64,000 bases of DNA from NCBI GenBank assembly GCA_964016885.1, contig OZ024754.1, positions 16,802,001 to 16,866,000 on the forward strand, in the 5' to 3' direction. The DNA comes from Eledone cirrhosa (lineage: Eukaryota). The notes under the pieces are model-generated. The model had not been told where the DNA came from, ran no database searches, and worked only from the letters and a program-made list of their open reading frames with translations. Below, in pieces: positions 3,062-60,051 of this stretch; positions within the stretch are counted from its first letter, which is position 1; every line of letters starts with the position of its first letter. Made by a program: the position numbers and the translations under genes.

Positions 3062-3772
3062 TATCAAAAGTATGTGTACAAGCCAATAAAGAAGGAGAGA
3101 TGGGAGATTAGTTGCGAGATTTATAATTCAGTAGTGAAGAGGACAGTGTGCTCAATGTGTATAAAGTGCAAGACAAACGAACAGTGAAAGTAAGCGAGAG
3201 AATTATATGTCAACCAAAAAGTATATAGGCAGAGCATTAATATAAAAATTAATTCTTAGAGAATACAATACCGAATTGAACAAATATATTTATTCATTTA
3301 CAATTGTTTCAGAAATAATATCCAAATTCAGTTCATAAAAATGAAAAATTATTGATGAGACCAGATAAGAAAATTGAACTAAGAAATGACCTCATCTTCA
3401 GAACCAAAAAGAAAATAAATATAAAATTCAAAAATACATGTCATTGATGATGTGGACTACATAAAACATAAAAGGCAAACCATACCACTTATCATTCAAA
3501 GGACCGAAACATAATTAAAATACATTCTAAAATCAAAGAAGTTAATTATTTACATAATGGAGGAAATATAAAACAGGAAGTAAGCAGGTGTAAATAGCAA
3601 GGGGCATAAATATGATAAGACTTAAATACTGGTTCTTAATGGAATTTACTGTTGATATACTAATGAGATATTTAAAAAAGGATGAGAAGTGTTACTATTA
3701 TTTATTACGGTAGATTAAAAAATAAATATAGGTGTGAAAAGAAATAGCATGCAATATTACTCAAGAGAGTAG

Positions 3773-3958
3773 GGCGGTGGATTGGCACTATCGGTAGAGG
3801 GTCGGACACCATGCTTTCAAGCATAGTTACGTCCCTTTACGATCTGAGTTCAAATCCCGCTGAGGTTGACTTTGCCTTTCATCCTTACGGGGTCGATAAA
3901 ATAAAGTACCAGTAATGCACTGGGTAATTGCTGGCCTTGTGCCTAAAGTAGAAACAAT
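3773..3958 (+). mobile_element. SINE family B with target-site duplication
   Basis: Full-length copy flanked by aatattactc(a/g)agag at ~3753 and ~3956. Confidence 0.9.
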
Positions 3959-4761
3959 ATTACTCGAGAGTTAATATGAGAGGAATCATTAAGAATAAAA
4001 TAATTAGAGGAAGTAATGTATATTATGACAAATGGAGCAAAAATAAATTATAATATATTATAAAATAAACGGTAAGATAAAGATAAAGGTAAAAGAAAAG
4101 AAAAGTATGATTATCATATTTAATGACCAGGCTAGGTATACCAGAGTGTAAGACATCAAATTATTAGACATGTGTTCCTCTAGTGATTGTTTTAAGTTTA
4201 GTAATGAGGGAAGGTCAAAGTTACGGATCATACATAGGTGTGAAGAAATAGAGTAAAGAAGAATAGGAAAGACTAAAAATATGAAATGAAAAGAGGTGTT
4301 AATATGTTAAGCCAAGGCAAAAAGAGATATAACATTAAGAATACTAATTATAAAAATTTAAATGAGGGGGTTTATAAAAAAAGTGGTCAAAGAGTAAATA
4401 ATTTGTCACATAAGGAGGAAAAAAGCCTTGATAGTGAGGTTTAATACTAAAACGAATTAGGAAGGAGGGGAAACTAAAGGAAGAGTGTTATCAATCAGAG
4501 TAAGTTAAAAGGAGTATAAATCTAATGGGAAAGGATAGAGTTTAAGAGAAAAAAAAAACACCTATTAAACTAAGAGAGTACAGGGGTTTTTGGATGAGGA
4601 GTTATAGATTAATATATTAGATGGGAATAATGAAATAGATAAAAATAAAAAAGTAAAATATAAAACAATTAAGGAGAAAATTTATACTAGTTATAGTGTG
4701 AAGATAGGTGGGTGGGGGTATGTGGGATAGGTAAAAAGATAGCTAAGTTAACTAATAGAAT

Positions 4762-5142
4762 CTAAGGAGAATCAAATACTTTGTTAGTGAACGAGTAAGC
4801 CAAACGATGATAGCAATTAATTTCAATCTCATTGTGATCATTTATTAGGCTGGGCTTATACATAGTTATGAAAAAAGCTTCCGATAAACAGAGGTCACAA
4901 TGACCTTTACAACCTTTGTAAGGAGAGGATTTAGCTAAGATATCCCAGACTAAAGAGTATTCAGTATTTGAGAGCTTTAGTTTATTAATATATCTAGCTA
5001 AAGACATAGTACATTTTAAATTACTATACTTAAAGGAATGTTTATTGGAATTTAAACAAGTCTTAAAACAGTTAGCAGTAGCTCCAATGTATGTTTTAGT
5101 GATTTCTGAAACAATTGTAAACCAATAAATATATTTGTTCAA
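4762..5142 (-). pseudogene. GIY-YIG endonuclease C-terminal remnant of a Penelope-like element
   Basis: Translation KTYIGAT..FK...KHSF...SLARYINKLK...YSLVWDILAKSSPY....HCDLCLSE...LINDHNEI...CYH matches the YIG/CxLC/LN..E..CxH pattern typical of PLE endonucleases. No RT is present upstream. Confidence 0.8.
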
Positions 5143-5179
5143 GAATTCCTTATTGTATTCTCTAACAATTAATTATATA

Positions 5180-8878: not shown

Positions 8879-8948
8879 TATATATGGGTAAGTATGTGTG
8901 TGTATGTATGGTTTTAATTTAGTTTTACGTGTATATGGATACACACAC

Positions 8949-21765: not shown

Positions 21766-22578
21766 TCTCAGATCAAGTCACTTGCCAGAACACACAGTCT
21801 CAGATCAAGTCACTTGCCAGAACACACAGTCTCAGATCAAATCACTTGCCAGAACAAACAGTCTCAGATCAAGTCACTTGCCAGAACACACAGGCTCAGA
21901 TCATGTCACTTGCCAGAACACACAGTCTCAGATCAAGTCACTTGCCAGAACACACAGTCTCAGATCAAGTCACTTGCCAGAACACACAGTCTCAGATCAA
22001 GTCACTTGCCAGAACACACAGTCTCAGATCAAGTCACTTGCCAGAACACACAGTCTCAGATCAAGTCACTTGCCAGAACACACAGGCTCAGATCATGTCA
22101 CTTGCCAGAACACACAGTCTCAGATCAAGTCACTTGCCAGAACACACAGTCTCAGATCAAGTCACTTGCCAGAACACACAGTCTCAGATCAAGTCACTTG
22201 CCAGAACACACAGTCTCAGATCAAGTCACTTGCCAGAACACACAGTCTCAGATCAAGTCACTTGCCAGAACACACAGGCTCAGATCATGTCACTTGCCAG
22301 AACACACAGTCTCAGATCAAGTCACTTGCCAGAACACACAGTCTCATATCAAGTCACTTGCCAGAACACACAGTCTCAGATCAAGTCACTTGCCAGAACA
22401 CACAGGCTCAGATCATGTCACTTGCCAGAACACACAGTCTCAGATCAAGTCACTTGCCAGAACACACAGTCTCAGATCAAGTCACTTGCCAGAACACACA
22501 GGCTCAGATCATGTCACTTGCCAGAACACACAGTCTCAGATCAAGTCACTTGCCAGAACACACAGTCTCAGATCAAGT
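21766..22578. repeat. 32-bp tandem minisatellite (~25 copies)
   Basis: Unit gtctcagatcaagtcacttgccagaacacaca, with a periodic variant ggctcagatcatg. Confidence 0.97.
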
Positions 22579-25500
22579 AATTTGTCAGACATGTAAAACA
22601 ATGGCTAAAACAACACTTCCACAGTGTAATTGCTTTAGTTTCAACACTGTCAGATCAAGTCATTTGTCAGACATGTACAACTATGGCTAAAACAACACTT
22701 CCACAGTGTAATTGCTTTAGTTTCAACACTGTCAGATCAAGTCATTTGTCAGACATGTACAACTATGGCTAAAACAACACTTCCACAGTGTAATTGCTTT
22801 AGTTTCAACACTGTCAGATCAAGTCATTTGTCAGACATGTACAACTATGGCTAAAACAACACTTCCACAGTGTAATTGCTTTAGTTTCAACACTGTCAGA
22901 TCAAGTCATTTGTCAGACATGTACAACTATGGCTAAAACAACACTTCCACAGTGTAATTGCTTTAGTTTCAACACTGTCAGATCAAGTCATTTGTCAGAC
23001 ATGTAAAACAATGGCTAAAACAACTCTTCCACAGTGTAATTGCTTTAGTTTCAACACTGTCAGATCAAGTCATTTGTCAGACATGTACAACTATGGCTAA
23101 AACAACACTTCCACAGTGTAATTGCTTTAGTTTCAACACTGTCAGATCAAGTCATTTGTCAGACATGTACAACTATGGCTAAAACAACACTTCCACAGTG
23201 TAATTGCTTTAGTTTCAACACTGTCAGATCAAGTCATTTGTCAGACATGTAAAACAATGGCTAAAACAACACTTCCACAGTGTAATTGCTTTAGTTTCAA
23301 CACTGTCAGATCAAGTCATTTGTCAGACATGTACAACTATGGCTAAAACAACACTTCCACAGTGTAATTGCTTTAGTTTCAACACTCTCAGATCAAGTAA
23401 TTTGTCAGACATGTAAAACAATGGCTAAAACAACACTTCCACAGTGTAATTGCTTTAGTTTCAACACTGTCAGATCAAGTCATTTGTCAGACATGTAAAA
23501 CAATGGCTAAAACAACACTTCCACAGTGTAATTGCTTTAGTTTCAACACTGTCAGATCAAGTCATTTGTCAGACATGTAAAACAATGGCTAAAACAACAC
23601 TTCCACAGTGTAATTGCTTTAGTTTGAACACTGTCAGATCAAGTCATTTGTCAGACATGTACAACTATGGCTAAAACAGCACTTCCACAGTGTAATTGCT
23701 TTAGTTTCAACACTGTCAGATCAAGTCATTTGTCAGACATGTAAAACAATGGCTAAAACAACACTTCCACAGTGTAATTGCTTTAGTTTCAACACTCTCA
23801 GATCAAGTAATTTGTCAGACATGTAAAACAATGGCTAAAACAACACTTCCACAGTGTAATTGCTTTAGTTTCAACACTGTCAGATCAAGTCATTTGTCAG
23901 ACATGTACAACTATGGCTAAAACAACACTTCCACAGTGTAATTGCTTTAGTTTCAACACTGTCAGATCAAGTCATTTGTCAGACATGTAAAACAATGGCT
24001 AAAACAACACTTCCACAGTGTAATTGCTTTAGTTTCAACACTGTCAGATCAAGTCATTTGTCAGACATGTAAAACAATGGCTAAAACAACTCTTCCACAG
24101 TGTAATTGCTTTAGTTTCAACACTGTCAGATCAAGTCATTTGTCAGACTTGTACAACAATGGCTAAAACAACACTTCCACAGTGTAATTGCTTTAGTTTC
24201 AACACTGTCAGATCAAGTCATTTGTCAGACATGTAAAACAATGGCTAAAACAACACTTCCACAGTGTAATTGCTTTAGTTTCAACACTGTCAGATCAAGT
24301 CATTTGTCAGACATGTACAACTATGGCTAAAACAACACTTCCACAGTGTAATTGCTTTAGTTTCAACACTGTCAGATCAAGTCATTTGTCAGACATGTAA
24401 AACAATGGCTAAAACAACACTTCCACAGTGTAATTGCTTTAGTTTGAACACTGTCAGATCAAGTCATTTGTCAGACATGTAAAACAATGGCTAAAACAAC
24501 ACTTTCACAGTGTAATTGCTTTAGTTTGAACACTGTCAGATCAAGTCATTTGTCAGACATGTACAACTATGGCTAAAACAACACTTCCATAGTGTAATTG
24601 CTTTAGTTTCAACACTGTCAGATCAAGTCATTTGTCAGACATGTAAAACAATGGCTAAAACAACACTTCCACAGTGTAATTGCTTTAGTTTGAACACTGT
24701 CAGATCAAGTCATTTGTCAGACATGTACAACTATGGCTAAAACAACACTTCCACAGTGTAATTGCTTTAGTTTCAACACTGTCAGATCAAGTCATTTGTC
24801 AGACATATAAAACAATGGCTAAAACAACACTTCCACAGTGTAATTGCTTTAGTTTGAACACTGTCAGATCAAGTCATTTGTCAGACATGTAAAACAATGG
24901 CTAAAACAACACTTCCACAGTGTAATTGCTTTAGTTTGAACACTGTCAGATCAAGTCATTTGTCAGACATGTACAACTATGGCTAAAACAACACTTCCAC
25001 AGTGTAATTGCTTTAGTTTCAACACTGTCAGATCAAGTCATTTGTCAGACATGTAAAACAATGGCTAAAACAACACTTCCACAGTGTAATTGCTTTAGTT
25101 TCAACACTGTCAGATCAAGTCATTTGTCAGACATGTACAACTATGGCTAAAACAACACTTCCACAGTGTAATTGCTTTAGTTTCAACACTGTCAGATCAA
25201 GTCATTTGTCAGACATGTACAACTATGGCTAAAACAACACTTCCACAGTGTAATTGCTTTAGTTTCAACACTGTCAGATCAAGTCATTTGTCAGACATGT
25301 AAAACAATGGCTAAAACAACTCTTCCACAGTGTAATTGCTTTAGTTTCAACACTGTCAGATCAAGTCATTTGTCAGACATGTACAACTATGGCGAAAACA
25401 ACACTTCCACAGTGTAATTGCTTTAGTTTCAACACTGTCAGATCAAGTCATTTGTCAGACATGTACAACTATGGCTAAAACAACACTTCCACAGTGTAAT

Positions 25501-28500
25501 TGCTTTAGTTTCAACACTGTCAGATCAAGTCATTTGTCAGACATGTAAAACAATGGCTAAAACAACACTTCCACAGTGTAATTGCTTTAGTTTCAACACT
25601 GTCAGATCAAGTCATTTGTCAGACATGTACAACTATGGCTAAAACAACACTTCCACAGTGTAATTGCTTTAGTTTCAACACTCTCAGATCAAGTAATTTG
25701 TCAGACATGTAAAACAATGGCTAAAACAACACTTCCACAGTGTAATTGCTTTAGTTTCAACACTGTCAGATCAAGTCATTTGTCAGACATGTAAAACAAT
25801 GGCTAAAACAACACTTCCACAGTGTAATTGCTTTAGTTTCAACACTGTCAGATCAAGTCATTTGTCAGACATGTAAAACAATGGCTAAAACAACACTTCC
25901 ACAGTGTAATTGCTTTAGTTTGAACACTGTCAGATCAAGTCATTTGTCAGACATGTACAACTATGGCTAAAACAACACTTCCACAGTGTAATTGCTTTAG
26001 TTTCAACACTGTCAGATCAAGTCATTTGTCAGACATGTAAAACAATGGCTAAAACAACACTTCCACAGTGTAATTGCTTTAGTTTCAACACTCTCAGATC
26101 AAGTAATTTGTCAGACATGTAAAACAATGGCTAAAACAACACTTCCACAGTGTAATTGCTTTAGTTTCAACACTGTCAGATCAAGTCATTTGTCAGACAT
26201 GTACAACTATGGCTAAAACAACACTTCCACAGTGTAATTGCTTTAGTTTCAACACTGTCAGATCAAGTCATTTGTCAGACATGTAAAACAATGGCTAAAA
26301 CAACACTTCCACAGTGTAATTGCTTTAGTTTCAACACTGTCAGATCAAGTCATTTGTCAGACATGTAAAACAATGGCTAAAACAACTCTTCCACAGTGTA
26401 ATTGCTTTAGTTTCAACACTGTCAGATCAAGTCATTTGTCAGACTTGTACAACAATGGCTAAAACAACACTTCCACAGTGTAATTGCTTTAGTTTCAACA
26501 CTGTCAGATCAAGTCATTTGTCAGACATGTAAAACAATGGCTAAAACAACACTTCCACAGTGTAATTGCTTTAGTTTCAACACTGTCAGATCAAGTCATT
26601 TGTCAGACATGTACAACTATGGCTAAAACAACACTTCCACAGTGTAATTGCTTTAGTTTCAACACTGTCAGATCAAGTCATTTGTCAGACATGTAAAACA
26701 ATGGCTAAAACAACACTTCCACAGTGTAATTGCTTTAGTTTGAACACTGTCAGATCAAGTCATTTGTCAGACATGTAAAACAATGGCTAAAACAACACTT
26801 CCACAGTGTAATTGCTTTAGTTTGAACACTGTCAGATCAAGTCATTTGTCAGACATGTACAACTATGGCTAAAACAACACTTCCACAGTGTAATTGCTTT
26901 AGTTTCAACACTGTCAGATCAAGTCATTTGTCAGACATGTAAAACAATGGCTAAAACAACACTTCCACAGTGTAATTGCTTTAGTTTCAACACTGTCAGA
27001 TCAAGTCATTTGTCAGACATGTACAACTATGGCTAAAACAACACTTCCACAGTGTAATTGCTTTAGTTTCAACACTGTCAGATCAAGTCATTTGTCAGAC
27101 ATGTAAAACAATGGCTAAAACAACACTTCCACAGTGTAATTGCTTTAGTTTGAACACTGTCAGATCAAGTCATTTGTCAGACATGTAAAACAATGGCTAA
27201 AACAACACTTCCACAGTGTAATTGCTTTAGTTTGAACACTGTCAGATCAAGTCATTTGTCAGACATGTACAACTATGGCTAAAACAACACTTCCACAGTG
27301 TAATTGCTTTAGTTTCAACACTGTCAGATCAAGTCATTTGTCAGACATGTAAAACAATGGCTAAAACAACACTTCCACAGTGTAATTGCTTTAGTTTCAA
27401 CACTGTCAGATCAAGTCATTTGTCAGACATGTAAAACAATGGCTAAAACAACACTTCCACAGTGTAATTGCTTTAGTTTGAACACTGTCAGATCAAGTCA
27501 TTTGTCAGACATGTACAACTATGGCTAAAACAACACTTCCACAGTGTAATTGCTTTAGTTTCAACACTGTCAGATCAAGTCATTTGTCAGACATGTACAA
27601 CTATGGCTAAAACAACACTTCCACAGTGTAATTGCTTTAGTTTCAACACTGTCAGATCAAGTCATTTGTCAGACATGTAAAACAATGGCTAAAACAACTC
27701 TTCCACAGTGTAATTGCTTTAGTTTCAACACTGTCAGATCAAGTCATTTGTCAGACATGTACAACTATGGCTAAAACAACACTTCCACAGTGTAATTGCT
27801 TTAGTTTCAACACTGTCAGATCAAGTCATTTGTCAGACTTGTACAACAATGGCTAAAACAACACTTCCACAGTGTAATTGCTTTAGTTTCAACACTGTCA
27901 GATCAAGTCATTTGTCACACATGTAAAACAATGGCTAAAACAACACTTCCACAGTGTAATTGCTTTAGTTTCAACACTGTCAGATCAAGTCATTTGTCAG
28001 ACTTGTACAACAATGGCTAAAACAACACTTCCACAGTGTAATTGCTTTAGTTTCAACACTGTCAGATCAAGTCATTTGTCAGACATGTAAAACAATGGCT
28101 AAAACAACACTTCCACAGTGTAATTGCTTTAGTTTCAACACTGTCAGATCAAGTCATTTGTCAGACTTGTACAACAATGGCTAAAACAACACTTCCACAG
28201 TGTAATTGCTTTAGTTTCAACACTGTCAGATCAAGTCATTTGTCAGACATGTAAAACAATGGCTAAAACAACACTTCCACAGTGTAATTGCTTTAGTTTC
28301 AACACTGTCAGATCAAGTCATTTGTCAGACATGTACAACTATGGCTAAAACAACACTTCCACAGTGTAATTGCTTTAGTTTCAACACTGTCAGATCAAGT
28401 CATTTGTCAGACTTGTACAACAATGGCTAAAACAACACTTCCACAGTGTAATTGCTTTAGTTTCAACACTGTCAGATCAAGTCATTTGTCAGACATGTAA

Positions 28501-31500
28501 AACAATGGCTAAAACAACACTTCCACAGTGTAATTGCTTTAGTTTCAACACTGTCAGATCAAGTCATTTGTCAGACATGTACAACTATGGCTAAAACAAC
28601 ACTTCCACAGTGTAATTGCTTTAGTTTCAACACTGTCAGATCAAGTCATTTGTCAGACATGTAAAACAATGGCTAAAACAACACTTCCACAGTGTAATTG
28701 CTTTAGTTTCAACACTGTCAGATCAAGTCATTTGTCAGACATGTACAACTATGGCTAAAACAACACTTCCACAGTGTAATTGCTTTAGTTTCAACACTGT
28801 CAGATCAAGTCATTTGTCAGACATGTACAACTATGGCTAAAACAACACTTCCACAGTGTAATTGCTTTAGTTTCAACACTGTCAGATCAAGTCATTTGTC
28901 AGACATGTAAAACAATGGCTAAAACAACACTTCCACAGTGTAATTGCTTTAGTTTCAACACTGTCAGATCAAGTCATTTGTCAGACATGTACAACTATGG
29001 CTAAAACAACACTTCCACAGTGTAATTGCTTTAGTTTCAACACTGTCAGATCAAGTCATTTGTCAGACATGTAAAACAATGGCTAAAACAACACTTCCAC
29101 AGTGTAATTGCTTTAGTTTCAACACTGTCAGATCAAGTCATTTGTCAGACATGTACAACTATGGCTAAAACAACACTTCCACAGTGTAATTGCTTTAGTT
29201 TCAACACTGTCAGATCAAGTCATTTGTCAGACATGTACAACTATGGCTAAAACAACACTTCCACAGTGTAATTGCTTTAGTTTCAACACTGTCAGATCAA
29301 GTCATTTGTCAGACATGTACAACTATGGCTAAAACAACACTTCCACAGTGTAATTGCTTTAGTTTCAACACTGTCAGATCAAGTCATTTGTCAGACATGT
29401 ACAACTATGGCTAAAACAACACTTCCACAGTGTAATTGCTTTAGTTTCAACACTGTCAGATCAAGTCATTTGTCAGACATGTAAAACAATGGCTAAAACA
29501 ACACTTCCACAGTGTAATTGCTTTAGTTTCAACACTGTCAGATCAAGTCATTTGTCAGACATGTACAACTATGGCTAAAACAACACTTCCACAGTGTAAT
29601 TGCTTTAGTTTCAACACTGTCAGATCAAGTCATTTGTCAGACATGTAAAACAATGGCTAAAACAACACTTCCACAGTGTAATTGCTTTAGTTTGAACACT
29701 GTCAGATCAAGTCATTTGTCAGACATGTAAAACAATGGCTAAAACAACACTTCCACAGTGTAATTGCTTTAGTTTGAACACTGTCAGATCAAGTCATTTG
29801 TCAGACATGTACAACTATGGCTAAAACAACACTTCCACAGTGTAATTGCTTTAGTTTCAACACTGTCAGATCAAGTCATTTGTCAGACATGTAAAACAAT
29901 GGCTAAAACAACTCTTCCACAGTGTAATTGCTTTAGTTTGAACACTGTCAGATCAAGTCATTTGTCAGACATGTACAACTATGGCTAAAACAACACTTCC
30001 ACAGTGTAATTGCTTTAGTTTGAACACTGTCAGATCAAGTCATTTGTCAGACATGTACAACTATGGCTAAAACAACACTTCCACAGTGTAATTGCTTTAG
30101 TTTGAACACTGTCAGATCAAGTCATTTGTCAGACATGTAAAACAATGGCTAAAACAACACTTCCACAGTGTAATTGCTTTAGTTTGAACACTGTCAGATC
30201 AAGTCATTTGTCAGACATGTAAAACAATGGCTAAAACAACTCTTCCACAGTGTAATTGCTTTAGTTTGAACACTGTCAGATCAAGTCATTTGTCAGACAT
30301 GTAAAACAATGGCTAAAACAACACTTCCACAGTGTAATTGCTTTAGTTTCAACACTGTCAGATCAAGTCATTTGTCAGACATGTAAAACAATGGCTAAAA
30401 CAACACTTCCACAGTGTAATTGCTTTAGTTTCAACACTGTCAGATCAAGTCATTTGTCAGACATGTAAAACAATGGCTAAAACAACACTTCCACAGTGTA
30501 ATTGCTTTAGTTTCAACACTGTCAGATCAAGTCATTTGTCAGACTTGTACAACAATGGCTAAAACAACACTTCCACAGTGTAATTGCTTTAGTTTCAACA
30601 CTGTCAGATCAAGTCATTTGTCAGACATGTAAAACAATGGCTAAAACAACACTTCCACAGTGTAATTGCTTTAGTTTCAACACTGTCAGATCAAGTCATT
30701 TGTCAGACTTGTAAAACAATGGCTAAAACAACACTTCCACAGTGTAATTGCTTTAGTTTCAACACTGTCAGATCAAGTCATTTGTCAGACATGTAAAACA
30801 ATGGCTAAAACAACACTTCCACAGTGTAATTGCTTTAGTTTCAACACTGTCAGATCAAGTCATTTGTCAGACATGTACAACTATGGCTAAAACAACACTT
30901 CCACAGTGTAATTGCTTTAGTTTCAACACTGTCAGATCAAGTCATTTGTCAGACTTGTACAACAATGGCTAAAACAACACTTCCACAGTGTAATTGCTTT
31001 AGTTTCAACACTGTCAGATCAAGTCATTTGTCAGACATGTACAACTATGGCTAAAACAACACTTCCACAGTGTAATTGCTTTAGTTTCAACACTGTCAGA
31101 TCAAGTCATTTGTCAGACATGTACAACTATGGCTAAAACAACACTTCCACAGTGTAATTGCTTTAGTTTCAACACTGTCAGATCAAGTCATTTGTCAGAC
31201 ATGTAAAACAATGGCTAAAACAACTCTTCCACAGTGTAATTGCTTTAGTTTGAACACTGTCAGATCAAGTCATTTGTCAGACATGTACAACTATGGCTAA
31301 AACAACACTTCCACAGTGTAATTGCTTTAGTTTGAACACTGTCAGATCAAGTCATTTGTCAGACATGTACAACTATGGCTAAAACAACACTTCCACAGTG
31401 TAATTGCTTTAGTTTGAACACTGTCAGATCAAGTCATTTGTCAGACATGTAAAACAATGGCTAAAACAACACTTCCACAGTGTAATTGCTTTAGTTTGAA

Positions 31501-33320
31501 CACTGTCAGATCAAGTCATTTGTCAGACATGTAAAACAATGGCTAAAACAACTCTTCCACAGTGTAATTGCTTTAGTTTCAACACTGTCAGATCAAGTCA
31601 TTTGTCAGACATGTAAAACAATGGCTAAAACAACACTTCCACAGTGTAATTGCTTTAGTTTCAACACTGTCAGATCAAGTCATTTGTCAGACATGTAAAA
31701 CAATGGCTAAAACAACACTTCCACAGTGTAATTGCTTTAGTTTCAACACTGTCAGATCAAGTCATTTGTCAGACATGTAAAACAATGGCTAAAACAACAC
31801 TTCCACAGTGTAATTGCTTTAGTTTCAACACTGTCAGATCAAGTCATTTGTCAGACTTGTACAACAATGGCTAAAACAACACTTCCACAGTGTAATTGCT
31901 TTAGTTTCAACACTGTCAGATCAAGTCATTTGTCAGACATGTAAAACAATGGCTAAAACAACACTTCCACAGTGTAATTGCTTTAGTTTCAACACTGTCA
32001 GATGAAGTCATTTGTCAGACATGTAAAACAATGGCTAAAACAACACTTCCACAGTGTAATTGCTTTAGTTTCAACACTGTCAGATCAAGTCATTTGTCAG
32101 ACTTGTACAACAATGGCTAAAACAACACTTCCACAGTGTAATTGCTTTAGTTTCAACACTGTCAGATCAAGTCATTTGTCAGACATGTAAAACAATGGCT
32201 AAAACAACACTTCCACAGTGTAATTGCTTTAGTTTCAACACTGTCAGATCAAGTCATTTGTCAGACATGTACAACTATGGCTAAAACAACACTTCCACAG
32301 TGTAATTGCTTTAGTTTCAACACTGTCAGATCAAGTCATTTGTCAGACTTGTACAACAATGGCTAAAACAACACTTCCACAGTGTAATTGCTTTAGTTTC
32401 AACACTGTCAGATCAAGTCATTTGTCAGACATGTACAACTATGGCTAAAACAACACTTCCACAGTGTAATTGCTTTAGTTTCAACACTGTCAGATCAAGT
32501 CATTTGTCAGACATGTACAACTATGGCTAAAACAACACTTCCACAGTGTAATTGCTTTAGTTTCAACACTGTCAGATCAAGTCATTTGTCAGACATGTAC
32601 AACTATGGCTAAAACAACACTTCCACAGTGTAATTGCTTTAGTTTCAACACTGTCAGATCAAGTAATTTGTCAGACATGTACAACTATGGCTAAAACAAC
32701 ACTTCCACAGTGTAATTGCTTTAGTTTCAACACTGTCAGATCAAGTCATTTGTCAGACATGTACAACTATGGCTAAAACAACACTTCCACAGTGTAATTG
32801 CTTTAGTTTCAACACTGTCAGATCAAGTCATTTGTCAGACATGTAAAACAATGGCTAAAACAACACTTCCACAGTGTAATTGCTTTAGTTTCAACACTGT
32901 CAGATCAAGTCATTTGTCAGACATGTAAAACAATGGCTAAAACAACACTTCCACAGTGTAATTGCTTTAGTTTCAACACTGTCAGATCAAGTCATTTGTC
33001 AGACATGTAAAACAATGGCTAAAACAACTCTTCCACAGTGTAATTGCTTTAGTTTCAACACTGTCAGATCAAGTCATTTGTCAGACATGTACGACAATGG
33101 CTAAAACGACTCTTCCACAATGTAATTGTTTTAGTTTCAACACTGTCAGATCAAGTCATTTGTCAGACATGTACAACTATGGCTAAAACAACACTTCCAC
33201 AGTGTAATTGCTTTAGTTTCAACACTGTCAGATCAAGTCATTTGTCAGACATGTACAACAATGGCTAAAACGACTCTTCCACAATGTAATTGTTTTAGTT
33301 TCAACACAGTCTCAGATCAA
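22567..33320. repeat. 82-bp satellite array (~130 copies) with higher-order duplications
   Basis: Unit gtcagatcaagtcatttgtcagacatgta(c/a)aac(t/a)atggctaaaacaacacttccacagtgtaattgctttagtttcaacact, period 82 (e.g. 22731 to 22813). Confidence 0.98.
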
Positions 33321-37514: not shown

Positions 37515-38088
37515 ACGAGGGTTGGCTGACCGAGAGACTCATGGAATGACCAAATGAGGTTTATTTTTCAACATAATCCCTGGAAAGAAACAATGCAGTT
37601 GTTAAGAAGAGTTGAAATTAATGTATGAATATTTCACAGTTGTAGCACATGGAGGCACATGGCTTAGTGGTTAGAGCATTGGTCTTGCAATCGAAAGGTT
37701 GTGAGTTCAATTCTCAGACCGGGTGATGTGTTGTTTCCTTGAGCAAGACACTTTATTTCCCATTGCTCCAGTTTACTCAGCTGTAGAAATGAAATAATAG
37801 GGACTGGGGTGCCTATCATTCCACTGCAAAATGGTCGTGGAGGTGCCACGGCAAAAAAGCACCCAGCACTCACTGTAAATGTGGTTGGTGTTAGGAAGGG
37901 CATCCAGCTGTAGAAAACCTGCTAGATAGTCCTATACGAGCGAGACACGGTCTTTCGGCCAATCTTACCTCAAGTGGGACAATTCCCGTCTAACCCATGC
38001 TAGCGTGGAAGATAGACGTTAAATGATGATGATGATGTAGCATCACTACTTCATAGTTAGTTTATAAACTTTTCAGCCAACCTTCATT
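37515..38088 (+). mobile_element. Mariner-like MITE interrupted by SINE A
   Basis: TA|CGAGGGTTGGCTGA left end and cttttcagccaaccttca right end. Another left end lies at 42808-42870. Confidence 0.65.
37651..38036 (+). mobile_element. SINE family A, with tail matching the 48171 RTE subfamily
   Basis: Head nearly identical to the 1811 copy. Tail agaaaacctgctagatagtcctatacgagc...ctcaagtgggac... with (GAT)n. TSD tgtagca. Confidence 0.92.
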
Positions 38089-47496: not shown

Positions 47497-47688
47497 GCTG
47501 AGCTCAAGCCGTTTCGACGGCTAATTCTGGACCAGAATTGGTCCAGAATTGGTCCAGAATTAGCCGTCGAAACGGCTTGAGCTCAGCCGTCGGGGTCCTA
47601 CTCGTTCCTATTACCCACTCTACTACCCTAAGTATTGAGTACTTTGGTGCGTTATGGTCCACCTGGTTCCTTACCACATTTCCTTCGT
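47497..47688. mobile_element. GC-rich foldback element plus tail, in (TA)n
   Basis: 47497-47534 and 47550-47587 are perfect reverse complements, with an 11-bp tandem unit ggtccagaatt at the centre and a ~100-nt unique tail. Confidence 0.8.
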
Positions 47689-48170: not shown

Positions 48171-49981
48171 TCATCATCATCATCATCATCAACGTTTAAC
48201 GTCCGTGTTCCACGCTTGCATGGGTTTGGACGGGGGTAGTCCCACTTGAGGCAAGAGTGATTGTCTTGCTCGCATAGGACTGTCTGGCAGGTTTTCTACA
48301 GTTGGATGCCCTTCCTAACACCAACCACATTTACAGTGTGGGTCTGGGAGGTTTTTACCGTGTTGCCTACACGGCCACATTACAGCGTGGACTGTGTGTT
48401 TTTTTGTCGTGACACCTACACGATCTCATTTGTTTCGGCCTCGAAGGCGCGGCACCAACATAACTTTACATAGAACGGGGTGGTGTGGATCGGGTGGGGG
48501 TGGGGGTGGTGGGACGGGGTGTATTTTGTTAGAGATGCCTACTGGCTGGAGTAGGTTTTACTATATATTTAGGTAAGGCGGGTCTTCTCTGTTACTGAGT
48601 ACCGCCAAAGGTCTCGGTCCAGTGACATTGTCTTGGAGAGGTGTAAGTGTGTGATGTCGGAGTTTATCAGCTCGTCCCAGGTTTTTCTAGGTCTGCCTAT
48701 TCCGTGACTACCGTCTATCTTTATTGCCCTGCACTTTGTTATACAGCTATCGACTTTCATGCGCATCACGTGTCCATACCAACGTAGCCTTCTCTCGAGT
48801 AAACAACATCTGATCCCTCTTATCTCTAATTTTTTCCTTAGTTCGTTTATGCTTTGCCGTTCACGTATATTACTGTTACACATCCAGCGGAGCATGCAAG
48901 CTTCGTTCCTCTCTAGTCTGCGTATATCCTCTGCACACAATGCCCAGGTCTCACTGCCATGCAGCATTGCTGTTCGTATGCAGGCATCGTACAACCTGCC
49001 TTTCATTTTTAGTGAGAGCCCTTTAGCAGCTAATAGTGGTATAAGCTCTCTGAACTTTTTCCAACCAGTTCTGACTCTAGCTACAGTACTTTCAGAGCAC
49101 CCTCCCCCACTGCTGATTTTATCGCCCAGGTAACGGAAGCTGTCCACTATTTCTATAGAACCCTCTGCGCAATTGAAAGAGCTAGTAGTTTGTGGGCACT
49201 TGCTGCTACTTATTGCACCAGAGCACCGGCCACATGTAAAATCTATGTTCTTAGTTAGCTTACCTGTGATCCCACTACATCTTTTATGCACCCATACTTT
49301 GCATTTAGGACATAAAATGGAGTTTCTACCTACGCCTTTCCTACACACCGAGCACGACCATTTCCCAGAAGGGACCGCCGCCTTGTTTTCTTTCCTACAA
49401 ACTAGCACTTTGGTCTTAGCCAGGTTAATTTTAAGTCCTTTTGACTCTAGGCCGTGCTTCCATGTTTGGAATTTCTTCTCTAGCTCGGCCATTGATTCCG
49501 CTATGAGTGTCAGGTCGTCTGCGTATAGGAGTTCCCATGGGCAGCCTGTCTTGAACTCCTCTGTTATAGCCTGAAGGGCAATAATAAATAGTAGTGGACT
49601 GAGAACAGAGCCCTGATGGACGCCAACTTTTACGCTAAACTCTTCACTATATTCGTTGTTAATTCTAACCTTGCTGACTGTTTCTTTATACATGGCTTGT
49701 ATAGCCCTCACAAGCCATTCGTCAACGCCTAGTTTTCTAAGAGCCCACCAGATAATGGAGCGGGGGACTCTGTCGAAGGCTTTCTCCAAGTCGACAAAAG
49801 CTAAGTAGAGGGGTTTACCTTTAGCTAGGTACTTCTCCTGTAGTTGTCGTACTATGAAAAGAGCGTCTGTGGTACTTTTGCCTGACACAAACCCGAACTG
49901 CATTTCATCTAGGTCAATTCTCTCTCTGATTAGTTGCGCTATTACTCTTTCCGTGACCTTCATGACCTGGTCGATTAATTT
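48171..49981 (-). mobile_element. 5'-truncated RTE LINE, second subfamily, open RT-to-stop frame
   Basis: Frame from KLIDQVMKV to EKTRLT* (stop at 48569) with [23 protein letters not shown], a C4HC3 finger and [11 protein letters not shown]. ~400-nt 3'UTR and (GAT)n tail. Clearly diverged in DNA from its neighbour. Confidence 0.95.
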
Positions 49982-50001
49982 ATATATATATATATATATA
50001 C

Positions 50002-53193
<3,192 letters not shown>

Positions 53194-53210
53194 TATATAT
53201 ATATATATAC

Positions 53211-53244
<34 letters not shown>

Positions 53245-53287
53245 CAAAATGAAAATCCGAAGGCAAGGTAAAATTCCAATCATTTAA

Positions 53288-53361
53288 TCACGACACATGT
53301 TTCAATAAGAGATAGATCGATTGTGAAGCCATGATCGATTATCACTGATCTCATCAGGTGA
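53288..53361 (-). ncRNA. Type I hammerhead ribozyme motif (GUC triplet)
   Basis: Minus strand: ucac-CUGAUGA-(long, weakly closed stem II)-GAAA-C-AUGU-G-UC-guga. Stem I ucac/guga and a minimal stem III. Confidence 0.65.
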
Positions 53362-53552
53362 AAATGAATTGTCTTCAAATTCTTGATATGAGGGAGAAAA
53401 AATAACGATGTTCTCTCACAGAATTCATTCCCTCATTCATTTCCCAATCATTCATTTCCCAATCTCATACATCAATTTTAAATTATTTTTCATATGTTGA
53501 TTTAAAACTTCATTATTCACAAGTGTTTTTTAAGCTGCATATCATGTATCCC

Positions 53553-53620
53553 TATTTTATCTGATGAGAACGCAGATATCATTCCATGATATTTGTTTTT
53601 GAAATGTGCATAATAAAATA
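53553..53620 (+). ncRNA. Type I hammerhead ribozyme motif
   Basis: uauuuuau-CUGAUGA(53561)-stem II gcagauauca/ugauauuugu-GAAA(53601)-U-GUGC-A-UA-auaaaaua. Perfect 8-bp stem I. Predicted cleavage after 53612. Confidence 0.8.
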
Positions 53621-53818
53621 CTTGGAACTGTTTTAACCATCTTTTGATCTTATATTATTTATACTCCAGTCCTACAAACTGTAGAGTGCTACTTATCCGA
53701 TATTTGCATTGCTTTATTGTGCTACAATAAAACTCATCTCCTACATATATACATATATATATACACATTTATATACACATATATAAACACATATATATAA
53801 ATACACATATATATATAT

Positions 53819-53851
<33 letters not shown>

Positions 53852-53852
53852 C

Positions 53853-53966
53853 ACAGTCCTATGCGAGCAAGACAACCACTCTTGCCTCAAGTGGGAAAAC
53901 TCCCGTCCAAACCCATGCAAGCATGGAACACGGACGTTAAACGATGATGATGATGATGATGATGAT
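53853..53966 (+). mobile_element. Extreme 3' tip of RTE (48171 subfamily) or cognate SINE
   Basis: acagtcctatgcgagcaagacaaccactcttgcctcaagtggg...gacgttaaacgatgatgatg is the inverted match of 48171-48283. Inserted in (TA)n. Confidence 0.88.
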
Positions 53967-54060
53967 ATACACATATATATATACGCATATATATACATAT
54001 ATATATGTATATATATATATATAATATATAAGATCAAAAGATGGTTAAAAGAGTTCCATG

Positions 54061-54131
54061 TATTTTATTATGTGCATTTCAAAAACAAATATCATCATGC
54101 AATAACATTTGTGTATTCGTCAGATAAAATA
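54061..54131 (-). ncRNA. Type I hammerhead ribozyme motif
   Basis: Minus strand: uauuuuau-CUGACGA-auacacaaauguuau...gaugauauuuguuuuu-GAAA-U-GCAC-A-UA-auaaaaua. Diverged inverted paralog of 53553-53620 with an intact core. Confidence 0.75.
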
Positions 54132-54333
54132 GGAAGACATGATATGAAGGTTAAAATACACTTGTGAATAGTGCAGTTTTAAATCAACATATGAAAAGTA
54201 GTTTTCTTATCCGATATCTGCACTGCTTTATTGTACTACAATAAGACTCACTTCCTACATATATATATATATAAATATATATAATATATATACGATATTA
54301 AATAAATGGAAACTATATTTATAAAACCATATT

Positions 54334-54398
54334 TATTTCATTATACATATTTCAGGGATACCAAATTAAAATATGGTATGCCTTCATCAGACAAGATA
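54334..54398 (-). ncRNA. Type I hammerhead ribozyme motif (left arm of foldback)
   Basis: Reverse complement of the 54545-54609 motif. Confidence 0.78.
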
Positions 54399-54544
54399 CA
54401 ATATATAAACAGTTTTATAAATAATTTTGACATACCCTATTAAATGCAACCATTATTTTTGGAAGCTATCTGGATAGCTTCCAAAAATAATGGTTGCATT
54501 TAATAGGGTATGTCAAAATTATTTATAAAACTGTTTATATATTG

Positions 54545-54609
54545 TATTTTGTCTGATGAAGGCATACCATATTTTAATTTGGTATCCCTGAAATATGTAT
54601 AATGAAATA
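54545..54609 (+). ncRNA. Type I hammerhead ribozyme motif (right arm of foldback)
   Basis: uauuuugu-CUGAUGA(54553)-aggcauacca/ugguaucccu stem II-GAAA(54590)-U-AUGU-A-UA-augaaaua. Predicted cleavage after 54601. Confidence 0.8.
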
Positions 54610-55100
54610 AATATGGTTTTATAAATATAGTTTCCATTTATTTAATATCGTATATCTACTCCAAAAACTTGTCGAGTGCTTTATATCAGTTATAAAATAT
54701 TTACTTGTTGTATCCCAACAATTTTAAATAGAACTTTTGCATATAATATATATATATATAAGTATTGAAGTTTCCATTGAAAATTGAAAAAGTCATAGGA
54801 GTGAAGAGTGCTCTATGTAAGTACCAGAGCTAAATTTAATGTATAATAAACAATACAATATAATTACCTCATTACCATATATATATAGTATATACATATA
54901 TATATACACACACACACACACACATATATATGCACCCACTAGCTCTGATTGTATTTTGCTGAATATACCATTAGACAAGAACATTATCTTGTTTATAGAC
55001 TGTTTATAAACACAAATAAATATCTCTAACAAATGTATTCATTATTAAGCCTGTTATATTTTCATTTTTGACATTATATATTTATGGCCTCTATTAAAAC

Positions 55101-55197: not shown

Positions 55198-58100
55198 GTT
55201 GTACTGTAGTGTATGTAGTGGTACTGTAGTGTATGTAGTGGTACTGTTGTGTATGTAGTGGTACTGTTGTGTATGTAGTGGTACTGTTGTGTATGTAGTG
55301 GTACTGTTGTGTATGTAGTGGTACTGTAGTGTATGTAGTGGTACTGTTGTGTATGTAGTGGTACTGTTGTGTATGTAGTGGTACTGTTGTGTATGTAGTG
55401 GTACTGTTGTGTATGTAGTGGTACTGTTGTGTATGTAGTGGTACTGTTGTGTATGTAGTGGTACTGTTGTGTATGTAGTGGTACTGTTGTGTATGTAGTG
55501 GTACTGTAGTGTATGTAGTGGTACTGTTGTGTATGTAGTGGTACTGTTGTGTATGTAGTGGTACTGTAGTGTATGTAGTGGTACTGTAGTGTATGTAGTG
55601 GTACTGTAGTGTATGTAGTGGTACTGTAGTGTATGTAGTGGTACTGTAGTGTATTTAGTGGTACTGTAGTGTATGTAGTGGTACTGTAGTGTATGTAGTG
55701 GTACTGTAGTGTATGTAGTGGTACTGTAGTATATGTAGTGGTACTGTAGTGTATGTAGTGGTACTGTTGTGTATGTAGTGGTACTGTTGTGTATGTAGTG
55801 GTACTGTTGTGTATGTAGTGGTACTGTAGTGTATGTAGTGGTACTGTTGTGTATGTAGTGGTACTGTAGTGTATGTAGTGGTACTGTTGTGTATGTAGTG
55901 GTACTGTTGTGTATGTAGTGGTACTGTTGTGTATGTAGTGGTACTGTTGTGTATGTAGTGGTACTGTAGTGTATGTAGTGGTACTGTTGTGTATGTAGTG
56001 GTACTGTTGTGTATGTAGTGGTACTGTTGTGTATGTAGTGGTACTGTTGTGTATGTAGTGGTACTGTTGTGTATGTAGTGGTACTGTTGTGTAGGTAGTG
56101 GTACAGCTGTGTATGTAGTGGCACTGTAGTGTATGTAGTGGTACTGTAGTGTAGGTAGTGGTACAGCTGAGGATGTAGTGGTACAGTAGTGTATGTAGTG
56201 GTACAGTAGTCTATGTAGTGTATGTAGTGGTACTGTTGTGTATGTAGTGGTACTGTTGTGTATGTAGTGGTACAGTAGTGTATGTAGTGGTACAGTAGTG
56301 TATGTAGTGGTACTGTAGTGTATGTAGTGGTACTGTAGTGTATGTAGTGGTACTGTAGTGTATGTAGTGGTACTGTTGTGTATGTAGTGGTACAGCTGTG
56401 TATGTAGTGGTACTGTAGTGTATGTAGTGGTACTGTAGTGTATGTAGTGGTACTGTAGTGTATGTAGTGGTACTGTTGTGTATGTAGTGGTACAGCTGTG
56501 TATGTAGTGGTACTGTAGTGTATGTAGTGGTACTGTAGTGTATGTAGTGGTACTGTAGTGTATGTAGTGTATGTAGTGTATGTAGTGGTACTGTAGTGTA
56601 TGTAGTGGTACTGTAGTGTATGTAGTGGTACAGTAGTGTATGTAGTGGTACTGTAGTGTATGTAGTGGTACAGTAGTGTATGTAGTGGTACAGTAGTGTA
56701 TGTAGTGGTATTGTAGTGGTACAGTAGTGTATGTAGTGGTACTGTAGTGTATGTAGTGGTACAGTAGTGTATGTAGTGTATGTAGTGGTACAGTAGTGTA
56801 TGTAGTGGTACTGTAGTGTATGTAGTGGTACTGTAGTGTATGTAGTGGTACTGTAGTGTATGTAGTGGTACAGTAGTGTATGTAGTGGTACAGTAGTGTA
56901 TGTAGTGGTACTGTAGTGTATGTAGTGGTACAGTAGTGTATGTAGTGGTACTGTAGTGTATGTAGGGGTATAGTAGTGTATGTAGTGGTACAGTAGTGTA
57001 TGTAGTGGTACTGTAGTGTATGTAGTGGTACTGTAGTGTATGTAGTGGTACAGTAGTGTATGTAGCGGTACTGTTGTGTATGTAGTGGTACTGTAGTGTA
57101 TGCAGTGGTACTGTTGTGTATGTAGTGGTACTGTTGTGTATGTAGTGGTACAGCTGTGTATGTAGTGGCACTGTAGTGTATGTAGTGGTACTGTAGTGTA
57201 GGTAGTGGTACAGCTGAGGATGTAGTGGTACAGTAGTGTATGTAGTGGTACAGTAGTGTATGTAGTGTATGTAGTGGTACTGTTGTGTATGTAGTGGTAC
57301 AGTAGTGTATGTAGTGGTACAGTAGTGTATGTAGTGGTACTGTAGTGTATGTAGTGGTACTGTAGTGTATGTAGTGGTACTGTAGTGTATGTAGTGGTAC
57401 TGTTGTGTATGTAGTGGTAGAGCTGTGTATGTAGTGGTACTGTAGTGTATGTAGTGGTACTGTAGTGTATGTAGTGGTACTGTAGTGTATGTAGTGGTAC
57501 TGTTGTGTATGTAGTGGTACAGCTGTGTATGTAGTGGTATTGTAGTGTATGTAGTGGTACTGTAGTGTATGTAGTGTATGTAGTGGTACTGTAGTGTATG
57601 TAGTGGTACAGTAGTGTATGTAGTGGTACTGTAGTGTATGTAGTGGTACTGTAGTGTATGTAGTGGTACAGTAGTGTATGTAGTGGTACTGTAGTGTATC
57701 TAGTGGTACTGTAGTGTATGTAGTGGTACTGTAGTGTATGTAGTGGTACTGTAGTGTATGTAGTGGTACAGTAGTGTATGTAGTGGTACAGTAGTGTATG
57801 TAGTGGTACTGTAGTGTATGTAGTGGTACAGTAGTGTATGTAGTGGTACTGTAGTGTATGTAGGGGTATAGTAGTGTATGTAGTGGTACAGTAGTGTATG
57901 TAGTGGTACTGTAGTGTATGTAGTGGTACTGTAGTGTATGTAGTGGTACAGTAGTGTATGTAGCGGTACTGTTGTGTATGTAGTGGTACTGTAGTGTATG
58001 CAGTGGTACTGTTGTGTATGTAGTGGTACTGTTGTGTATGTAGTGGTACAGCTGTGTATGTAGTGGCACTGTAGTGTATGTAGTGGTACTGTAGTGTAGG

Positions 58101-60051
58101 TAGTGGTACAGCTGAGGATGTAGTGGTACAGTAGTGTATGTAGTGGTACAGTAGTGTATGTAGTGTATGTAGTGGTACTGTTGTGTATGTAGTGGTACAG
58201 TAGTGTATGTAGTGGTACAGTAGTGTATGTAGTGGTACTGTAGTGTATGTAGTGGTACTGTAGTGTATGTAGTGGTACTGTAGTGTATGTAGTGGTACTG
58301 TTGTGTATGTAGTGGTAGAGCTGTGTATGTAGTGGTACTGTAGTGTATGTAGTGGTACTGTAGTGTATGTAGTGGTACTGTAGTGTATGTAGTGGTACTG
58401 TTGTGTATGTAGTGGTACAGCTGTGTATGTAGTGGTACTGTAGTGTATGTAGTGGTACTGTAGTGTATGTAGTGTATGTAGTGGTACTGTAGTGTATGTA
58501 GTGGTACAGTAGTGTATGTAGTGGTACTGTAGTGTATGTAGTGGTACTGTAGTGTATGTAGTGGTACAGTAGTGTATGTAGTGGTACTGTAGTGTATCTA
58601 GTGGTACTGTAGTGTATGTAGTGGTACTGTAGTGTATGTAGTGGTACTGTAGTGTATGTAGTGGTACTGTAGTGTATGTAGTGGTACTGTAGTGTATGTA
58701 GTGGTACTGTAGTGTATGTAGTGGTACTGTAGTGTATGTAGTGGTACAGTAGTGTATGTAGTGGTATTGTAGTGTATGTAGTGGTACAGTAGTGTATGTA
58801 GTGGTACAGTAGTGTATGTAGTGGTACTGTAGTGTATGTAGTGGTACAGTAGTGTATGTAGTGGTACTGTAGTATATGTAGTGGTACTGTAGTGTATGTA
58901 GTGGTACTGTAGTGAATGTAGTGGTACTGTAGTGTATGTAGTGGTACAGTAGTGTATGTAGTGGTACAGTAGTGTATGTAGTGGTACTGTAGTGTATGTA
59001 GTGGTACAGTAGTGTATGTAGTGGTACTGTAGTGTATGTAGGGGTATAGTAGTGTATGTAGTGGTACAGTAGTGTATGTAGTGGTACTGTAGTGTATGTA
59101 GTGGTACTGTAGTGTATGTAGTGGTACAGTAGTGTATGTAGTGGTACAGTAGTGTATGTAGTGGTACAGTAGTGTATGTAGTGGTACAGTAGTGTATGTA
59201 GTGTATGTAGTGGTACAGTAGTGTATGTAGTGGTACTGTAGTGTATGTAGTGGTACTGTAGTGTATGTAGTGGTACTGTAGTGTATGTAGTGGTACAGTA
59301 GTGTATGTAGTGGTACTGTAGTGTATGTAGTGGTACTGTAGTGTATGTAGTGGTACAGTAGTGTATGTAGTGGTACTGTAGTGTATGTAGTGGTACAGTA
59401 GTGTATGTAGTGGTATTGTAGTGTATGTAGTGGTACAGTAGTGTATGTAGTGGTACTGTAGTGTATGTAGTGGTACTGTAGTGTATGTAGTGGTACTGTA
59501 GTGTATGTAGTGGTACTGTAGTGTATGTAGTGGTACAGTAGTGTATGTAGTGGTACTGTAGTGGTACAGTAGTGTATGTAGGGGTATAGTAGTGTATGTA
59601 GTGGTACTGTAGTGTATGTAGTGGTACTGTAGTGTATGTAGTGGTACTGTAGTGTATGTAGTGTATGTAGTGGTACAGTAGTGTATGTAGTGGTACAGTA
59701 GTGGTACAGTAGTGTATGTAGTGGTACTGTAGTGTATGTAGTGGTACTGTAGTGTATGTAGTGGTACAGTAGTGTATGTAGTGGTACTGTAGTGTATGTA
59801 GTGGTACTGTAGTGTATGTAGTGGTACTGTAGTGTATGTAGTGGTACAGTAGTGTATGTAGTGGTACAGTAGTGTATGTAGTGGTACTGTAGTGTATGTA
59901 GTGGTACTGTAGTGGTACAGTAGTGTATGTAGTGGTACAGTAGTGTATGTTGTGGTACAGTAGTGTATGTAGTGGTACTGTAGTGTATGTAGTGGTACTG
60001 TAGTGTATGTAGTGGTACAGTAGTGTATGTAGTGTATGTAGTGGTACAGCT
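55198..60051. repeat. 20-bp satellite array (~240 copies)
   Basis: Unit gtac(t/a)gt(a/t)gtgtatgtagtg, with occasional 9- or 11-bp half units and recurrent variant blocks. Confidence 0.98.

Follow-up and report, generated by a model that had tools for sequence, protein, structure and literature searches.

The closest described relatives of the elements reported here are the Hydra-clade Penelope-like elements (PLEs) of Craig et al. 2021 (PMC8557442), a clade that includes the octopus element Hydra-1_Obim. Section 11 of that paper gives RWK, DKT, CxCX5C, CxxC and CxH as defining features. As described there, the members have no CCHH, carry a canonical hammerhead near the 3' end, insert into (TA)n and are accompanied by inverted truncated copies. 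Minimal hammerheads with a long stem II and a short palindromic stem III have been reported from PLE pseudo-LTRs (Cervera 2014, PMC4209133), mostly as single motifs or as opposite-strand pairs 100-700 bp apart, and these pairs were already ascribed in 2014 to truncated PLEs. Inverted truncated PLE copies with a single tail were described in 2013 and in 2021, and section 15 of PMC8557442 states the origin of the inverted copies and tails as open. The protein of a green anole PLE, the Poseidon element PAc (Frangieh et al. 2024, PMC11167929), is reported to cut and extend both strands, starting at two internal sites that bound the tail. Lastly, the non-LTR retrozymes (Cervera and De la Pena 2020, PMC7229834; bioRxiv 10.64898/2026.07.22.740005) are described as tandem repeats of ORF-less units of ~200-350 nt with a type-I hammerhead and a very high copy number.

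The locus studied here is a cluster of hammerhead motifs at 53288-54609 of a 64 kb window, the whole stretch of Eledone cirrhosa DNA that was analysed. With a probability of about 0.95, judged from sequence, we take these motifs to be the hammerheads of PLE copies that lack their 5' part and keep the 3' pseudo-LTR end, and that belong to three protein-coding families of the Hydra clade, here called A (with a subfamily A'), B and C. This anatomy is of a known kind (PMC4209133; PMC8557442), and the families are new. The short copies are likely to be dead on arrival.

A strict type-I descriptor matches five times in the window, and all five matches lie inside the cluster. These are HH1 (53288-53361, minus strand, family C, cut predicted after 53292), HH2 (53553-53620, plus, family A, after 53612), HH3 (54061-54131, minus, subfamily A', after 54069), HH4 (54338-54394, minus, family B, after 54342) and HH5 (54545-54609, plus, family B, after 54601). 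All five have the core CUGANGA...GAAA...UH closed by stems I-III. The positions agree with those of the first-pass annotation of this DNA, as do the loops AUGU, GUGC and GCAC and the division into three sequence types (A including A', B and C). The one difference concerns HH4, whose extent had been given as 54334-54398 because a stem I mismatch lies beyond its four contiguous pairs. No strict match arose in 2000 dinucleotide shuffles of the cluster region, and 100 block shuffles of the whole window gave a mean of 0.03.

The Rfam search that the same annotation had suggested found no hammerhead at gathering score and none at E<=10, likely an effect of the long stem II. As monomers the five hammerheads are not better folded than shuffles (z-scores -0.38 to -1.81). 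The 8-mer across stem III is fully self-complementary in four of the five when G-U pairs are allowed, while HH3 has two mismatches, and these self-complementary 8-mers fit the dimer model put forward in PMC4209133. HH4 and HH5 sit on opposite arms of a single palindrome, so that the motifs cannot be counted as five separate elements.

The cluster is built of three head-to-head arm pairs within (TA)n: a short family C arm against a tailed family A arm, a short A' arm against an A' arm that consists of tail only, and a short family B arm against a tailed one. Between the pairs lie TA arrays and a LINE 3' fragment. The C arm (53245..53436, minus strand, from ~-144 to +56 relative to the cut) has the short 3' end, holds HH1 and abuts (TA)n at 53194-53243; the same 191 nt occur without a difference in at least five other copies. 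A filler without TA repeat, part of a 15-nt tandem duplication, occupies 53437..53454. It is followed by the A arm (53455..53744, plus, ~-160 to +132), which has the tailed 3' end, holds HH2 and runs into (TA)n; the opening of its tail is predicted, from sequence and from covariation across families, to form a bulged hairpin at 53663..53690 (plus). The LINE fragment (53852..53964, plus) ends in (GAT)n, is an insertion into the TA array that separates two PLE units and looks by eye like the LINE-type 3' end at ~48171-48290. The A' short-ended arm (54031..54204, minus), ~86% identical to family A, holds HH3, and its partner (54206..54258, plus, +80 to +132) has no sequence in common with it. In the last pair, the short-ended B arm (54293..54470, minus, ending at +57) holds HH4, and the tailed B arm (54472..54742, plus, ending at +144) holds HH5 and continues into (TA)n, with a bulged hairpin predicted at 54658..54680 (plus) where the tail opens. 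The two B arms differ at 1 of 169 nt and form a near-perfect palindrome.

Copies of all three families are plentiful in the same genome. A first look gave 1384 candidates for A, 830 for B and 1344 for C, and among 40 scored candidates each, from samples ranked by best hit, identity was 93-97%, 99-100% and 98-100%. The sequence common to the copies reaches at least 1.1 kb (A) or at least 1.45 kb (B and C) upstream in some of them, and for all three types it runs via a 3' UTR of 1.1-1.5 kb into endonuclease ORFs. Among loci chosen by endonuclease DNA, the N-terminal/RT half is found upstream in 15/25 for A and 17/25 for B. In family C the ORF, UTR and pseudo-LTR are collinear in three loci (L141, L143 and L152). 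Motifs, together with homology to an intact 892-aa relative, indicate a single ORF, with RT followed by a C-terminal endonuclease, upstream of the hammerhead-bearing end. The first-pass annotation was right to class the motifs as type-I hammerheads of the PLE kind, whose stem III is short and nearly palindromic, but its small ORF-less non-autonomous family does not stand, as longer copies reach RT and endonuclease ORFs.

The assignment to the Hydra clade was made by motifs and by-eye comparison with published proteins. Family C displays RWK, families B and C display DKT, and the CxCX5C linker, CxxC and CxH are present in A, B and C, with CCHH absent by eye. The proteins resemble, again by eye, the Hydra-1_Obim protein in the supplement of PMC8557442. 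Pfam and PDB profiles gave no RT or endonuclease (GIY-YIG) match in the Hydra-type proteins; in the Atlas, the nearest clusters (at 0.98) were of ctenophore and cnidarian origin, and GIY-YIG appeared further down the list, on 31-50% of members. Domain identity therefore rests on the motifs, the by-eye likeness to published Hydra proteins and the Atlas lead. (TA)4 lies within 24 nt of the 3' end in 126/152 copies, so these families share the (TA)n insertion of the Hydra clade as well as its inverted truncated copies.

In some respects the families depart from the published description of the clade (PMC8557442). They are longer than the <3 kb given there, with ORFs of up to ~890 aa that contain low-complexity inserts, 3' UTRs of 1.1-2 kb, and ~4 kb or more of ORF and UTR together. 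Stem III consists of 2 bp and a 4-nt alternating loop, whereas File S2 of that paper lists stems of 3-4 bp, and the tails measure 80-140 nt against 30-40 nt. None of the three cluster hammerheads is that of Hydra-1_Obim as published. The low-complexity inserts lie between RT and endonuclease and are family-specific, N-rich or R/G/P-rich (P0005-P0007, alignment A1); they resemble the N-rich inserts reported for rotifer PLEs. No RNA run is listed as containing this stretch, and three RNA runs chosen by guess gave short scattered matches or none, a result that speaks neither for nor against expression.

Genome-wide, the hammerhead pattern matches 111,279 times (78,562 + 32,717), or ~37 per Mb in 3.0 Gb, while the reversed control pattern matches 484 times. 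Against the 2,000-9,000 copies of PMC4209133 this amounts to ~110,000, a rough comparison because the descriptors differ. The count is near the 126,247 motifs found with another descriptor in axolotl (PMC7229834; bioRxiv 10.64898/2026.07.22.740005), although the axolotl genome is roughly ten times larger, and here it comes from truncated coding elements and not from retrozymes. As in PMC4209133, the motifs are mostly single or in opposite-strand pairs that truncated PLEs account for.

The stems and core of the motif are conserved, and two checks that the first-pass annotation had named, stem covariation and a core better kept than its flanks, came out in favour of hammerheads. On contig 1, the first 100 matches to the pattern, covering 7.9 Mb of that one contig, were picked on core and stem III alone, blind to stem I; in 89 of them stem I has 4 or more contiguous pairs, whereas a shifted control gave 0. 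Covariation of stem I is seen across families, with 10/21 distinct signatures fully paired against a shuffle mean of 3.7, a value of 10 being reached in 0/5000 shuffles. For stem II, 33/58 distinct regions fold better than 95% of shuffles. Kinship among the copies inflates shuffle tests of this sort. In BLAST-collected copies below 93% identity, core cells differ in 10/429 cases and other cells in 384/3627; the near-identical B and C copies show no difference between core and other positions. Five loci (L037, L074, L082, L134 and L150) contain hammerheads of other types, whose stem III loops are longer and which probably come from other PLE clades.

Each family has two fixed 3' ends, which, counted from the hammerhead cut site, lie at +51 and +132 in A, +57 and +144 in B, and +56 and +195 in C. 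The tail of a full-length family C copy runs on into the 5' UTR, with the ATG at ~+239. These ends recall PAc, for which PMC11167929 reports two fixed 3' ends bounding the tail, a stem-loop in the initiation region, an AT-rich target and a hammerhead just upstream, all shared with the families here. The tail of PAc lies inside the ORF, whereas that of family C ends at +195, before the ATG. Inverted pairs, which characterize the present families, are not treated in the main text of that study.

At their 5' ends the copies mostly meet an inverted arm of their own family. This holds for 133 of 190 5' ends; the others meet a TA/CA repeat (15), a collinear piece (8), another family's reference (9) or other sequence (25). 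Besides the junction of the C and A arms, seven cross-family junction rows were set aside as evidence, five of them involving a SINE-like piece embedded in the reference copies and two having a TA spacer. In 51 same-family pairs, a sample biased to tails because the A and B copies were retrieved with tailed queries and ranked by best hit, 35 join a short arm to a tailed one, 5 join two tailed arms, none joins two short arms and 11 are of other kinds. The position-ordered sample, made up of the 100 contig 1 matches, gives 21 pairs, scored by script as 17 short with tailed, 2 short with short, 1 tailed with tailed and 1 unscored; by eye two further pairs are short with tailed (19/21).

The two arms are usually of one source, being nearer each other than the family median in 15/18 position-ordered pairs. 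Their lengths differ by up to ~1.3 kb, with offsets in either direction, and the spacing of paired cut sites varies between loci. In 9 of 35 pairs the 5' ends lie within 10 nt of each other, making these pairs nearly symmetric, and in 3 of the 35, one of which belongs to the window, the arms have no overlap and so cannot be fold-back copies of each other. Pair junctions favour palindromes.

Just 3' of the short end, where the tail begins, many families have a predicted hairpin in which ACTC is followed by an inner stem, a bulge of 2 nt and then GAGTGCT (in family C, GAGAACT). With a bulge of 2, the three inner pairs all form in 58/70 distinct sequences and 29/40 signatures; they do so in none at a bulge of 1, 3, 4 or 5, and in 6/40 at a bulge of 0. 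The shuffle mean is 15.2 and none of 5000 shuffles reached 29. By eye, the bulged hairpin is also present in published coral and sea-cucumber elements: the Hydra-2_Amil, Hydra-1_Ajap and Hydra-2_Ajap consensuses have GCTC with GAGCACT, the same arrangement with a compensatory change. Hydra-1_Crog fits in part, and the published Hydra-1_Obim sequence ends before the hairpin. Single-sequence folding backs the predicted structure weakly; it is missing when the family A tail is folded to minimum energy, and the z-scores of the tails range from -0.01 to -1.09. In the open papers that we searched, we found neither this hairpin, nor the rule that pairs one short with one tailed arm, nor the genome-wide count given above.

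We are highly confident of the identity of the elements taken together with the arrangement of back-to-back arm pairs in (TA)n, each pair likely arising from two primings on opposite strands. How the primings are placed is a less certain matter, and here we somewhat favour a model with one priming on each target strand, the two sites lying on either side of a hairpin bound by protein, after which the products are joined 5' to 5'. We infer nicking by a GIY-YIG-type endonuclease, hairpin binding and the two priming sites. In this scheme the endonuclease would nick both strands of a TA array while the protein binds the conserved bulged hairpin, which lies 50-75 nt downstream of the hammerhead. 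Priming from one nick, just 5' of the hairpin, would give the short arm, and priming from the other, 80-140 nt further 3', would give the tailed arm, both usually on RNA of the same source copy. Both cDNAs would stop early and be linked by their 5' ends, in many cases at a small palindrome. As each insertion would leave TA arrays at both of its ends, later insertions could pile up there and produce a cluster such as this one. In full-length elements the hammerhead would, going by the literature, cleave transcripts of tandem copies, probably with low efficiency and either as a dimer or aided by protein.

The view of the first-pass annotation was that the motifs belong to non-autonomous retrozymes, small ORF-less elements spreading via their own circular RNAs with a PLE acting in trans. 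Such elements do share with our families the type-I hammerhead, a similar unit length, ORF-less short copies and abundance, and monomers related to PLE pseudo-LTRs are known in vertebrates (bioRxiv 10.64898/2026.07.22.740005). Most copies are also short: 39/61 5' ends lie between -160 and -61, and 9/26 family A ends are at -123/-124. However, the position of the 5' end differs greatly between copies, in a gradation that extends into UTR and ORF, the families include coding sequence for RT and endonuclease, and where retrozymes form tandem repeats of hammerhead units the cluster has none, consisting instead of inverted pairs of variable length and of inconstant cut-site spacing. Among the 100 contig 1 matches there are 35 neighbour intervals below 6 kb, of which 21 are head-to-head and 4 same-strand within one family, just one of these 4 being shorter than 1 kb. 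We therefore consider retrozymes very improbable here and this reading largely refuted. A fixed transcription start was also considered and may be the source of the short copies; the family A spike at -123 coincides with a palindrome, and divergence between subfamilies makes BLAST ends imprecise. If RNA were cleaved before reverse transcription, 5' ends should accumulate at the cut site; no such accumulation was seen, with 3/61 and 2/71 ends within 10 nt of it; the sample of 61 is biased towards copies that hold the whole hammerhead.

A different origin for the inverted arm is self-priming, in which the elements are the same and a cDNA or antisense template folds back at a palindrome, as modelled in PMC3846280. 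The common source of the two arms, the palindromic junctions and the near-perfect palindrome of the window's B pair all agree with it, and the nearly symmetric pairs (9/35), being expected from self-priming too, count against dual priming. Self-priming nevertheless leaves without explanation why one arm has the fixed short end and the other the tail end; arms offset by hundreds of bases, one way or the other, and the pairs without arm overlap are further points against it, and we think it unlikely. A separate difficulty for strand-specific priming is that the anole study saw no difference between the two strands as to start site (PMC11167929).

The junction of the C and A arms at 53437-53454 raises another question, namely whether it is one chimeric insertion made from RNAs of two families or two insertions fused by deletion. 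A short and a tailed arm stand here head to head with a small duplicated filler and no TA between them, and both arms look young, with no near-private substitution in the 191 nt of C and 2 in the 290 nt of A. This is, on the other hand, the sole PLE-PLE junction without a TA spacer among the 190 5' ends, none of the 21 head-to-head neighbours in the position-ordered sample is of different families, and a deletion between two adjacent pairs would yield the same picture; we regard a chimera as rather doubtful. The wider proposal, that a clade-wide hairpin positions a dimeric RT-endonuclease to prime both strands, before the hairpin and at the tail end, and that the C and A junction is a two-RNA product, we put forward tentatively, at slightly less than even odds.

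As annotation the locus is ordinary: the families are new, but both their PLE clade and their arrangement have been described before. The rule of one short and one tailed arm, together with the conserved hairpin, turns the question of inverted PLE copies into specific mutations and read-outs. If true, dual priming at the hairpin would explain the structure of inverted copy plus single tail that has long been unexplained in PLEs, and the ~37 hammerheads per Mb would represent tens of thousands of natural reaction products for testing the model.

The window also holds a separate fourth Hydra-type family, D, at 3065..5178 (minus strand), with an endonuclease fragment (4762-5172), a long 3' UTR, a damaged hammerhead, a tail and a short inverted arm at ~5107-5178. 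The GIY-YIG element at 4762 had been proposed as a possible mobiliser of the cluster. Its protein is 30-40% identical to those of the other families and the element has no DNA match to the cluster; being distinct in both protein and DNA, it bears nothing that marks it for this role. Its hammerhead (3299-3401, minus; core at 3401, cut after 3299, stem I damaged) is the sixth in the window and was absent from the first-pass annotation. Stem II measures 84 nt in the window copy and 95-98 nt in relatives, and the core with a 6-bp stem I is kept in 6/11 relatives. A SINE-like repeat lies inside the 3' UTR of this element at ~3770-3965. The 3' end of the same repeat abuts the 5' ends of A or B copies in three loci (L037, L047 and L171), possibly as template-switch chimeras or by chance. 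Outside the window, a further family, E, has an uninterrupted Hydra ORF of 892 aa (L136:2419-5097) and frames of 814-894 aa in at least five loci, and such intact long frames may point to recent activity.

A 957-aa ORF at 50414-53287, beside HH1, was tried as the hammerhead's own ORF and rejected, as it is that of an APE-RT LINE, with a TA array between the two. There are three APE-RT LINE pieces in the window (50414-53190, minus; 48569-50164, minus; 8892-10709, plus), which have a PHD finger after the RT and which we take to be RTE-like. The LINEs at 48-53 kb have (GAT)n 3' ends, and the copies at 8892 and 50414 are nearly identical in protein. Large satellites occupy 22568-33320, where an 82-nt unit is repeated 131 times, and 55201-60043, where a 20-nt unit is repeated 246 times. 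A weak tRNA match (37660-37717, plus, 30.5 bits) is likely the head of a tRNA-derived SINE. Finally, a short palindromic repeat at 47500-47590 lies by a long TA array, and similar sequence is found near TA arrays in several loci.
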